Shown one piece after another: positions 33,091 through 33,916 of a DNA stretch of 64,000 nucleotides. Position numbers and translations under genes: made by a program. Below the pieces are notes generated by a model. That model did not search any database. It saw nothing but the letters and a program-made list of their open reading frames with translations, and was not told the origin of the DNA. This DNA comes from Ketobacteraceae bacterium. Lineage in GTDB: Bacteria; Pseudomonadota; Gammaproteobacteria; Pseudomonadales; Ketobacteraceae. Position 1 is the stretch's first letter. Each line of letters begins with the position of its first letter. The stretch lies in contig OZ244969.1 in NCBI GenBank assembly GCA_965222725.1, positions 1,111,939 to 1,175,938 on the forward strand, given 5' to 3'.

Positions 33091-33744
33091 TTATTCGGGT
33101 TCTACCCAGTAGGCATTGCTGCCTTCGATTTTTTCCACGATCAGAACCTTGTCGCCCCGTTTCAGGCCGTTTTCCGCTTTGCTGCGGATACGGACAATAA
33201 TGTCCGCACCATCTATGGCGATATTGGCTTCGCCAAAGCGCTCATCCACACGGGTGCTTTTTACGGTGCAGCTGCGACCGATAAACACTTTTTTAACGGA
33301 AGGGCTGTTCAGGGCGCGAAACAGGGGGCGCAACGGTTTGATCAGCGTTGCCGTTATGGGTATAGAGACAGCGACGGCACCAAAGATCACCACAAGGCCG
33401 ATCAGCGCATTCAGCAGGGTGCTGTCGCCCCAGAAGAAAAAGAAATGTACCACCATGAAAGTCAGCACCCAGGCACTCAGGGTGAGCACAGTAATCACCA
33501 CCGTCAGGGGCACCCCGCTCAAGCCCAGGGTCACCATCAGGCCGGCAAAGCCTTCCAGGTCAAAATCGGCGTCAGCGTCCAGGTCAATATCCAGATCCAG
33601 CACATCGATATCCACCATTCCGATAATGGCGAACAGCCAGTAAAGGCACATAAAGCCCAGCAGGCCGGTGAATACGATGGTTGGGAAACTGAAAATGTTA
33701 CTGAAGAAAGCTTCCATATCTTGTGTTGTCTCCATGCAGGACAT
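33091..33744 (-). CDS. NfeD/YqiJ-like inner membrane protein with a C-terminal OB-fold (flotillin partner)
   Basis: Multi-TM N-terminus, an acidic DIDVLDLDIDLDADADFD stretch and a C-terminal NfeD-type OB-fold (GRSCTVKSTRVD..GDKVLIVEKIEG..WVEP). Directly upstream of the flotillin gene, as in E. coli yqiJK. Confidence 0.7.
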   Translation of the reverse strand: MSCMETTQDMEAFFSNIFSFPTIVFTGLLGFMCLYWLFAIIGMVDIDVLDLDIDLDADADFDLEGFAGLMVTLGLSGVPLTVVITVLTLSAWVLTFMVVHFFFFWGDSTLLNALIGLVVIFGAVAVSIPITATLIKPLRPLFRALNSPSVKKVFIGRSCTVKSTRVDERFGEANIAIDGADIIVRIRSKAENGLKRGDKVLIVEKIEGSNAYWVEPE

Positions 33745-33916
33745 GATATGTCAATTTACGGATTAAGACATATCATGTCAAGGTGGTTTTCCACCTTTTC
33801 ATTGTTGTTATTCATTGCGGCTATCGAGACAGGGACTATAGCAGGATTTTTTTACTGAGCTATGCTTGACATAAAATGTCGTCACCCCTAAGATGAATCT
33901 CATGACATAACATGTC
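33740..33916. promoter_or_regulatory. Four copies of a 13-bp palindrome, GACAT-N3-ATGTC, in the divergent intergenic region between the NfeD-flotillin operon and the yjfI/yjfJ-like operon
   Basis: GACATGATATGTC (33740-33752), GACATATCATGTC (33767-33779), GACATAAAATGTC (33868-33880) and GACATAACATGTC (33904-33916). Sites 1 and 2 are exact reverse complements of each other. Site 4 ends about 20 nt before the AAGGAG RBS of the + strand gene. Confidence 0.45.

Follow-up and report, generated by a model that had tools for sequence, protein, structure and literature searches.

Four copies of the 13-bp palindrome GACAT-N3-ATGTC (GACATNNNATGTC) lie between two divergent gene sets in a 64-kb stretch of DNA from a Ketobacteraceae bacterium (hereafter the window, to whose numbering all positions refer unless a related locus is named). 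One gene set begins with yjfI and pspA, and the other encodes NfeD-like, flotillin-like and AAA+ proteins. We regard it as very probable that the four sites are functional operators controlling both promoters. With distinctly less assurance, though still as the reading we favor, we propose that they are the operators of a dedicated repressor, a 108-aa tandem ribbon-helix-helix (RHH)-like protein encoded downstream of pspA, which would co-repress both operons and, by negative autoregulation, its own synthesis.

Scans for exact sites covered the window and the related loci that we fetched. The window contained four matches, all in the 220-bp gap between the divergent gene sets and all inside 177 bp, against an expectation of 0.07 per window in 100 dinucleotide-preserving shuffles, none of which gave four. 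On the NfeD-like side, the promoter-proximal site GACATGATATGTC (33740-33752) and the distal site GACATATCATGTC (33767-33779) are exact reverse complements separated by 14 nt. On the yjfI side, the distal site is GACATAAAATGTC (33868-33880) and the proximal one GACATAACATGTC (33904-33916), whose end precedes the AAGGAG ribosome-binding site beginning at 33923. A sequence-only reading of this DNA had described four palindromes with identical half-sites, the relation and spacing of the first two and the position of the last one just 5′ of AAGGAG, and all of these details hold. It had also proposed a transcription factor operator array, which the overlap with both divergent predicted promoters and the conservation of the sites as sequence-specific palindromes across two proteobacterial classes bear out. 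Its further proposal of co-regulation stands as well, since both operons carry operators. When one mismatch was allowed, the only extra matches in the window were four copies of GACGTTTCATGTC with 534-bp spacing in a repetitive open reading frame (ORF), which are unrelated to the operators. In that ORF (18259-21399, plus strand, 1046 aa), the copies recur at exact intervals (19659, 20193, 20727, 21261); the period implies tandem 178-aa protein repeats and exceeds the range of the tandem-repeat tool.

The sites are conserved well beyond the closest relatives. A scan with a YjfI profile, using one genome per species, returned 69 loci, and almost every one had the exact motif upstream of yjfI. 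With at most one mismatch, it was present there in each of the 61 assessable genome loci with a gene for the 108-aa protein, a set that includes Ketobacter-like Pseudomonadales, Kangiellaceae, Hahella, Zooshikella, Marinobacter, Cellvibrionaceae and Azotimanducaceae. Distant homologues of the protein led to five more loci, mostly betaproteobacterial, all of which had sites (Burkholderiales, Azoarcus and Accumulibacter metagenome-assembled genomes [MAGs], another MAG of the same gene order, and Candidatus Endobugula). Motif and 108-aa gene were thus found together in 66 of 66 assessable gamma- and betaproteobacterial loci, and the pooled operator consensus was tTGACATAWTATGTCAa. In an intergenic alignment of the window and six relatives, the four operators stood out as conserved together with their TT/AA flanks, with invariant columns at the 33740-33752 site; elsewhere conservation was limited to a short block specific to one clade and to a few positions in -10 hexamers and start codons. 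Site and promoter numbers go together, with four sites in divergent layouts and two in colinear ones, in which the order yjfI-pspA-regulator-(rhomboid)-NfeD-like-flotillin-like-AAA+ places all genes behind yjfI. In the Marinobacter loci (L039-L063, sites at about -164 and -75 from yjfI), there is one exact site only, the proximal yjfI operator; the NfeD-like side carries the variant TTGACAGTnnnTGTCA (GACAGT...TGTC type), and the regulator has QMAFD or QLAFD and an altered helix-B turn.

The shortness of the half-sites is all that speaks for a chance cluster, or for a recent local duplication devoid of function. Against such an origin, no shuffle yielded four sites, and the sites kept their position and sequence in gamma- and betaproteobacteria alike, in contrast to the intergenic DNA around them. 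We give this reading next to no credence, and a chance origin of the four sites is excluded by the conservation data.

Each gene set is preceded by a sigma-70-like promoter; both promoters and their transcription starts are consensus predictions. The promoter of the yjfI-pspA operon (33866..33894, plus strand) has the -35 hexamer TTGACA at 33866-33871, a 17-nt spacer and the -10 hexamer TAAGAT at 33889-33894. That of the NfeD-like/flotillin-like/AAA+ operon (33753..33781, minus strand) has TTGACA at 33781-33776, again a 17-nt spacer, and TAAATT at 33758-33753, and each promoter agrees with the consensus at 10 of 12 positions. Both hold two operators in the same arrangement: the distal one overlaps the -35 hexamer and supplies the GACA of a perfect element (TTGACAT), and the proximal one follows the -10 hexamer and spans the expected transcription start. 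The proximal operator begins 9 nt after the -10 hexamer on the yjfI side, at about +3 to +15 of the predicted transcript, and directly 3′ of it (0 nt, in minus-strand view) on the NfeD-like side.

This design is shared by all related loci with a site pair, betaproteobacteria included, in the form of TTGACA, a 16- to 18-nt spacer, TAnnnT and a second operator 0 to 14 nt further on, the sole exception at the -10 hexamer being AACACT in L028. The minus-strand promoter occurs as TTGACA-17-TAGATT or close variants in L001-L010 and L021. The NfeD-side proximal operator lies 0 to 1 nt after the -10 hexamer in L001-L010, which are of the divergent type with an intact pair; L021 differs, its sites being 19 bp apart. 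On the yjfI side, the distance between the two operators ranges from 28 to 40 bp among loci, which favors independent occupancy over strict helical phasing. In the window and in the related site-pair loci alike, the operators overlap the -35 or -10 hexamer or the predicted start of a recognizable promoter, and this placement, as judged from predicted promoters, corresponds to the geometry of a promoter-occluding repressor.

The same placement could be accounted for if the repeats acted as RNA hairpins in the 5′ untranslated region (5′-UTR), or if they were kept only because they contain a -35 hexamer. The proximal sites are indeed predicted to be transcribed, GACAU-N3-AUGUC can make a 5-bp stem, and the distal sites have GACA in common with TTGACA. 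However, the RNA hairpin is weak (-1.9 kcal/mol), folding of the 5′-UTR equals that of shuffled sequence (z = 0.0), and the stems are invariant rather than co-varying, with the loop itself conserved as AWT. Conservation of the distal sites, which precede the predicted starts, equals that of the proximal ones, and it extends beyond the hexamer to the whole 13- to 17-bp palindrome. Both variants of this explanation therefore appear very improbable to us.

The locus also lacks the features of a classical PspF/sigma-54 psp regulon, i.e., a -24/-12 promoter, an adjacent PspF and PspBC. A scan of 33700-33960 for sigma-54 promoters gave a best match at 7 of 11 specified positions with no GG/GC core, and no enhancer-binding-protein, PspB or PspC domain was found in the seven cluster genes scanned.

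Two other elements lie in the same intergenic region. An AAGGTGG-tttt-CCACCTT hairpin at 33780-33797, terminator-like by score, had been reported as a separate GGTGG-tttt-CCACC element. The hairpin is present, but in the alignment of the window and six relatives it was not conserved even in the closest relative, L001; it is thus probably incidental, and we rejected it as a functional element. A block reading ACTATAGCA at about 33841-33849, or TGCTATAGT on the minus strand, resembles an extended -10 element and is located approximately 20 to 35 nt upstream of the yjfI -35 hexamer. Colinear loci lack this block, which is kept in the divergent Ketobacter-like clade alone and could be a second promoter toward the NfeD-like gene or another binding site.

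The sequence-only reading had seen no candidate regulator within the two operons. This view is refuted, as the third gene of the yjfI-pspA operon (35154..35480, plus strand) encodes the 108-aa protein with two RHH-like repeats, whose co-occurrence with the motif is complete in the assessable loci. Its gene lies downstream of pspA in all loci with enough sequence, and the 108-aa gene and the operators are the invariant pair of the system. Conversely, the two yjfI-pspA loci that do not have the gene, L027 (spermidine-synthase type) and yjfIJKLMC of E. coli K-12, had no site at up to one mismatch. In contig L112 (4640-5060, minus strand), the promoter TTGACATATTATGTC...TAGAGT...GACATATTATGTC is found directly upstream of the 108-aa and rhomboid genes, with neither yjfI nor pspA between the operator pair and the 108-aa gene and with a predicted 5′-UTR of about 190 nt.

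The factor that binds the sites might instead be encoded elsewhere in the genome. DNA binding by the 108-aa protein is deduced and its RHH assignment is weak, and motif pairs of the same design precede genes for a YidC-like insertase and small membrane proteins near which no 108-aa gene was found, which indicates a regulon wider than the operon. An unlinked factor would nevertheless have to accommodate the perfect co-occurrence of motif and 108-aa gene in the 66 loci of two proteobacterial classes, the absence of the motif where the gene is absent, and the position of the operators directly before the 108-aa gene in L112; moreover, no other DNA-binding-type gene was consistently linked. We consider such a factor unlikely.

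The extent of the regulon was gauged from sites at other positions. The related loci, about 760 kb in all, had exact sites at the yjfI and NfeD-like promoters and, apart from these, only before the lipoprotein-DUF350-spermine-synthase operon of the same PspA-linked system. There, a single extra operator (L032 2098, L034 2102, L035 2093, L038 2180, L062 327, L066 2046) precedes an operon for a lipoprotein, DUF350 (eight transmembrane segments) and a transmembrane plus spermine-synthase protein just upstream of yjfI, in loci of the Azotimanducaceae type. A metagenome scan for site pairs returned at least 120 contigs. Among the contigs listed, 30 carry cluster genes (29 have yjfI and/or pspA, and the other is L112) and AWT-centered sites; the other 90 share no common flanking gene family and contain mostly CCG/CGG- or ACC/GGT-centered repeats, and were rejected as regulon evidence because they are unrelated repeat elements. 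Unrelated repeat arrays with GACAT-N3-ATGTC were seen in L193 (4170-4820), L128, L099, L101, L103 and L110, the one in L193 being a 123-bp tandem repeat of five copies. About six AT-rich contigs among those listed have the promoter TTGACATAWTATGTC...GACATAWTATGTC before genes for a YidC-like insertase (PF02096) or small membrane proteins. Such two-operator promoters, located at L083 8922-8962, L181 391-432, L163 3178-3220 and L167 412-454, precede genes for a short YidC/Oxa1-type insertase and small unannotated membrane proteins. The short flanks fetched for the AT-rich contigs with the genuine promoter design contained no 108-aa gene. Taken together, these sites suggest a small regulon of membrane-related genes in some lineages.

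Another product of the cluster, either the TFIIB-type Zn-ribbon protein (35477-36007) or YjfI/BacA, could also be the binding factor. The Pfam family of the former, PF13453, is named "transcription factor zinc-finger," and its gene recurs in some clusters (window, L001, L018/L019, L070, L095, L151, L196). For YjfI/BacA, a role as negative regulator of the Pseudomonas aeruginosa bac operon has been proposed, and transposon insertion in bacA leads to excess accumulation of the other Bac proteins (PMC10948618). Yet most motif-bearing loci have no Zn-ribbon gene within the roughly 6 kb fetched on each side of yjfI. As for YjfI, it has a CesT/Tir-like type III secretion system (T3SS) chaperone fold without a DNA-binding motif (PMC11237479, PMC10948618), and it is present in the motif-less E. 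coli and L027. We judge both proteins to be quite improbable as the binding factor.

The 108-aa protein is probably the cognate repressor of the operators, with DNA binding deduced from its likely fold and its genomic linkage. Its family comprises at least 2195 clusters, and those listed are all annotated as hypothetical and have no Pfam domain. The family alignment contains two invariant extended segments, QVAFD (residues 16-20) and RPRL.V.L (residues 58-65; RPRLTVTL in the window), each followed by two predicted helices, a pattern that would correspond to two strand-helix-helix RHH modules per chain, such a module being about 45 residues long. In Foldseek searches, 35 residues superposed on the RHH antitoxin Rv0298 at 0.9 A with a probability of 0.90, and CopG/Arc-family chains were among the best structural matches. 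Among 30 members, sub-threshold Pfam matches were to FitA-like_RHH (0.0016), RHH_1 (0.0096), NikA-like and RHH_10. A profile of the N-terminal half had as its best PDB match AvtR, a viral transcriptional regulator, over helix A, turn and helix B (marginal E value of 0.056). A published profile analysis labels the last gene of a Shewanella operon, ordered lipoprotein-DUF350-spermine synthase-DUF2170-PspA-DUF4178-RHH, as RHH (PMC11237479). L029-L037 share this gene order and have the 108-aa gene in the RHH position, and by synteny the 108-aa family would correspond to that RHH protein.

These indications are individually weak but consistent, and membership of the 108-aa protein in the RHH superfamily is likely on sequence and predicted structure. 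It is not demonstrated, as no Pfam or NCBIfam model matched the protein above its curated cut-off. The full-length family profile had no match among PDB sequences, and the C-terminal-half profile gave spurious matches only. Alignment of the N- and C-terminal halves of the family with hhalign detected no similarity (probability of 1.7%), so that the tandem-repeat reading relies on secondary structure and motif pattern only.

Several observations weigh against the proposed role of the 108-aa protein as the repressor. The loci that serve as negative controls for co-occurrence number only two, and the promoters are known from consensus matches rather than from mapped starts. AlphaFold2 left the two putative strands unpaired, with a predicted template modeling score (pTM) of 0.38-0.41, in a monomer model that does not give the quaternary arrangement; a second run with 120 sequences brought no improvement, the strands still being unpaired. 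No informative co-variation was detected between operator variants (Marinobacter, and the one-mismatch sites of L020, L026 and L064) and the putative recognition strands, as regulator changes in the variant-operator lineages are minor (QMAFD/QLAFD, RPRLTVTF). Finally, the design found in AT-rich contigs with no 108-aa gene nearby is compatible with a trans-acting factor without singling one out.

We infer from the sequences that the 108-aa protein binds the operators and that the outcome is repression rather than activation. In the mechanism that we favor, the protein would bind each 13-bp palindrome and block RNA polymerase at both promoters: with the distal operator fused to the -35 hexamer and the proximal one lying across the transcription start, an occupied operator would compete with RNA polymerase. 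The yjfI-pspA-regulator(-Zn-ribbon-rhomboid) operon and the NfeD-like/flotillin-like/AAA+ operon would thereby be shut off jointly. Two RHH modules would occupy each palindrome, probably one per GACAT half-site, with half-site centers 8 bp apart, a layout that would resemble neighboring MetJ or CopG dimers. Because the repressor gene is located inside the yjfI-pspA transcription unit, the loop would be one of negative autoregulation, with the regulator gene sitting behind a terminator-like hairpin in this clade. Membrane stress would then remove the repressor, which may be sequestered by the CesT-like YjfI or by PspA. Such relief by sequestration, conjectured by analogy with PspA-PspF and with partner switching by T3SS chaperones, is plausible. 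The phenotype of the bacA mutant is compatible with a negative role of YjfI in a related system devoid of the 108-aa gene, and has no direct bearing on this locus.

The remaining features of the cluster are consistent with a known gene association. The first gene of the plus-strand operon, yjfI-like (DUF2170; 33938..34345), matches PF09938 (E = 1.9e-36) and is followed by a YjfJ-type PspA/IM30 gene (34357..35055; PF04012, E = 3.3e-40). Between pspA and the 108-aa gene lies the terminator-like hairpin GGGAGCC-gcaa-GGCTCCC with a T run (35092..35116, plus strand; hairpin at 35092-35109). Comparable hairpins were found in 9 of 54 related loci, mainly in the closest clade, and the element may be a leaky terminator that holds expression of the regulator low relative to high PspA levels. 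The gene for the Zn-ribbon protein (plus strand) overlaps the 108-aa gene by 4 nt and is followed after a 6-nt gap by a rhomboid-family gene (36014-36586, plus strand).

The divergent operon on the minus strand comprises genes for an NfeD/YqiJ-like membrane protein of about 208 aa (33091..33717), a flotillin-like coiled-coil membrane protein of 692 aa (30962..33040) and, as its last gene, an AAA+ ATPase of 1765 aa (25560..30857; DUF3686, DUF7902 and AAA domains). The names "flotillin" and "NfeD" used in the sequence-only reading have no support from Pfam or PDB sequence matches, neither of which was obtained for these two proteins; they are based on a weak NCBIfam FloT match (E = 0.002) for the former and on synteny for both (PMC11237479). 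For the NfeD-like gene, the most likely start is ATG 33717, where relatives conserve ATGGAAGC (MEAFF...) with GGAG/GGGG upstream. The longest ORF opens at ATG 33744, inside an operator, but we rejected this leaderless start, since that ATG does not share the reading frame in L001-L010, L017 and L021, the relatives inspected. The locus has the composition of a CesT/Tir(DUF2170)-PspA-flotillin-AAA+ cluster, with strong DUF2170 and PspA_IM30 matches, AAA+ domains and a gene order kept in dozens of loci, the flotillin-like and NfeD-like identities within this assignment being weakly supported. Its gene set matches the operon of CesT/Tir(DUF2170)-PspA, YqiJ/YuaF, band-7/flotillin and AAA+ genes known from profile analyses (group 1 of Ravi et al. 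2024; PMC11237479), as well as the P. aeruginosa bac cluster (PMC2587700, PMC10948618).

The operator-regulator pair of this widespread PspA/flotillin-like module is undescribed, and its mechanism, a small repressor occluding its own promoter, is conventional. Outside the PspF paradigm, no transcriptional regulator has been established for YjfJ-type PspA, bacterial flotillin-like proteins or the P. aeruginosa bac cluster, which is linked to biofilm formation and virulence. The analysis yields a precise 13- to 17-bp operator, a conserved promoter design and a candidate repressor in at least 2000 sequence clusters, and the operator pattern TTGACATAWTATGTCAA is usable as a genomic marker of the regulon. 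A broader reading, which we put forward tentatively as possible though doubtful, is that the 108-aa proteins form an unmodeled family of at least 2000 members that serves as the tandem-RHH switch of YjfJ-type PspA/flotillin/polyamine modules in place of PspF/sigma-54. The small membrane-homeostasis regulon of this switch would include the YidC-like insertase and DUF350/spermine-synthase operons in some lineages, and the activity of the switch could be set by partner switching with the CesT-like YjfI, by PspA or by both. If true, the switch would govern PspA/flotillin/polyamine membrane-maintenance modules in many gamma- and betaproteobacteria and represent an envelope-stress analogue of the type III secretion ExsC/ExsD cascades.

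With CopG (RepA) of pMV158 and Arc/Mnt of phage P22, the proposed system would share a small RHH-type autorepressor acting at a short symmetric element that overlaps the promoter. CopG binds a 13-bp pseudo-symmetric element overlapping the -35 hexamer as two dimers, and the strand RPRLTVTL resembles the CopG-type strand KRLTITL. The CopG and Arc chains, with a single RHH repeat each, assemble into homodimers, whereas the 108-aa protein would have two different repeats per chain and has no significant match to RHH Pfam families. The targets differ as well, since CopG and Arc act on a plasmid or phage control region and the operators described here belong to a membrane-stress cluster on the chromosome that has two promoters and four sites. 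Two RHH motifs per polypeptide are found in AvtR of the archaeal lipothrixvirus AFV6 (PDB 4hv0) and in TraY of the F plasmid. AvtR, the marginal best match of the N-terminal repeat profile, was also in the Foldseek list. The organisms and targets of both proteins are unrelated to this cluster, and in contrast to the asymmetric TraY sites, the operators described here are perfect palindromes.

A related gene context has been described in the CesT/Tir(DUF2170)-PspA-DUF4178 operon of Shewanella oneidensis (PMC11237479), to which L029-L037 correspond with genes for a lipoprotein, DUF350, spermine synthase, DUF2170, PspA, a protein of about 215 aa and the 108-aa protein. That study lists RHH in a context table for one operon type, with no operator, promoter or regulatory model, and does not give an RHH gene in the flotillin/AAA+ operon type of the window, the families being equated by synteny. 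Our literature searches with operator motif strings and Shewanella locus tags found nothing relevant beyond this one-line mention of RHH (PMC11237479).

Control of a PspA-family operon is likewise a feature of the bacABCDEF operon of P. aeruginosa and of the classical Psp system. The core of the bac operon comprises DUF2170, PspA, a 23-kDa membrane protein, a 76-kDa protein and downstream genes (PMC2587700, PMC10948618), and in the published gene descriptions, bacB and bacC have no 108-aa gene between them. For bacA, a sigma-54 site has been proposed, whereas sigma-70-like promoters with repressor-type operators were found here. In the classical Psp system, PspF and sigma-54 drive expression and PspA acts as an anti-activator, in contrast to the cluster described here, where none of the genes scanned encodes an enhancer-binding protein. 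As in the logic of Psp, a protein of the pathway itself may nonetheless control the activity of the regulator.

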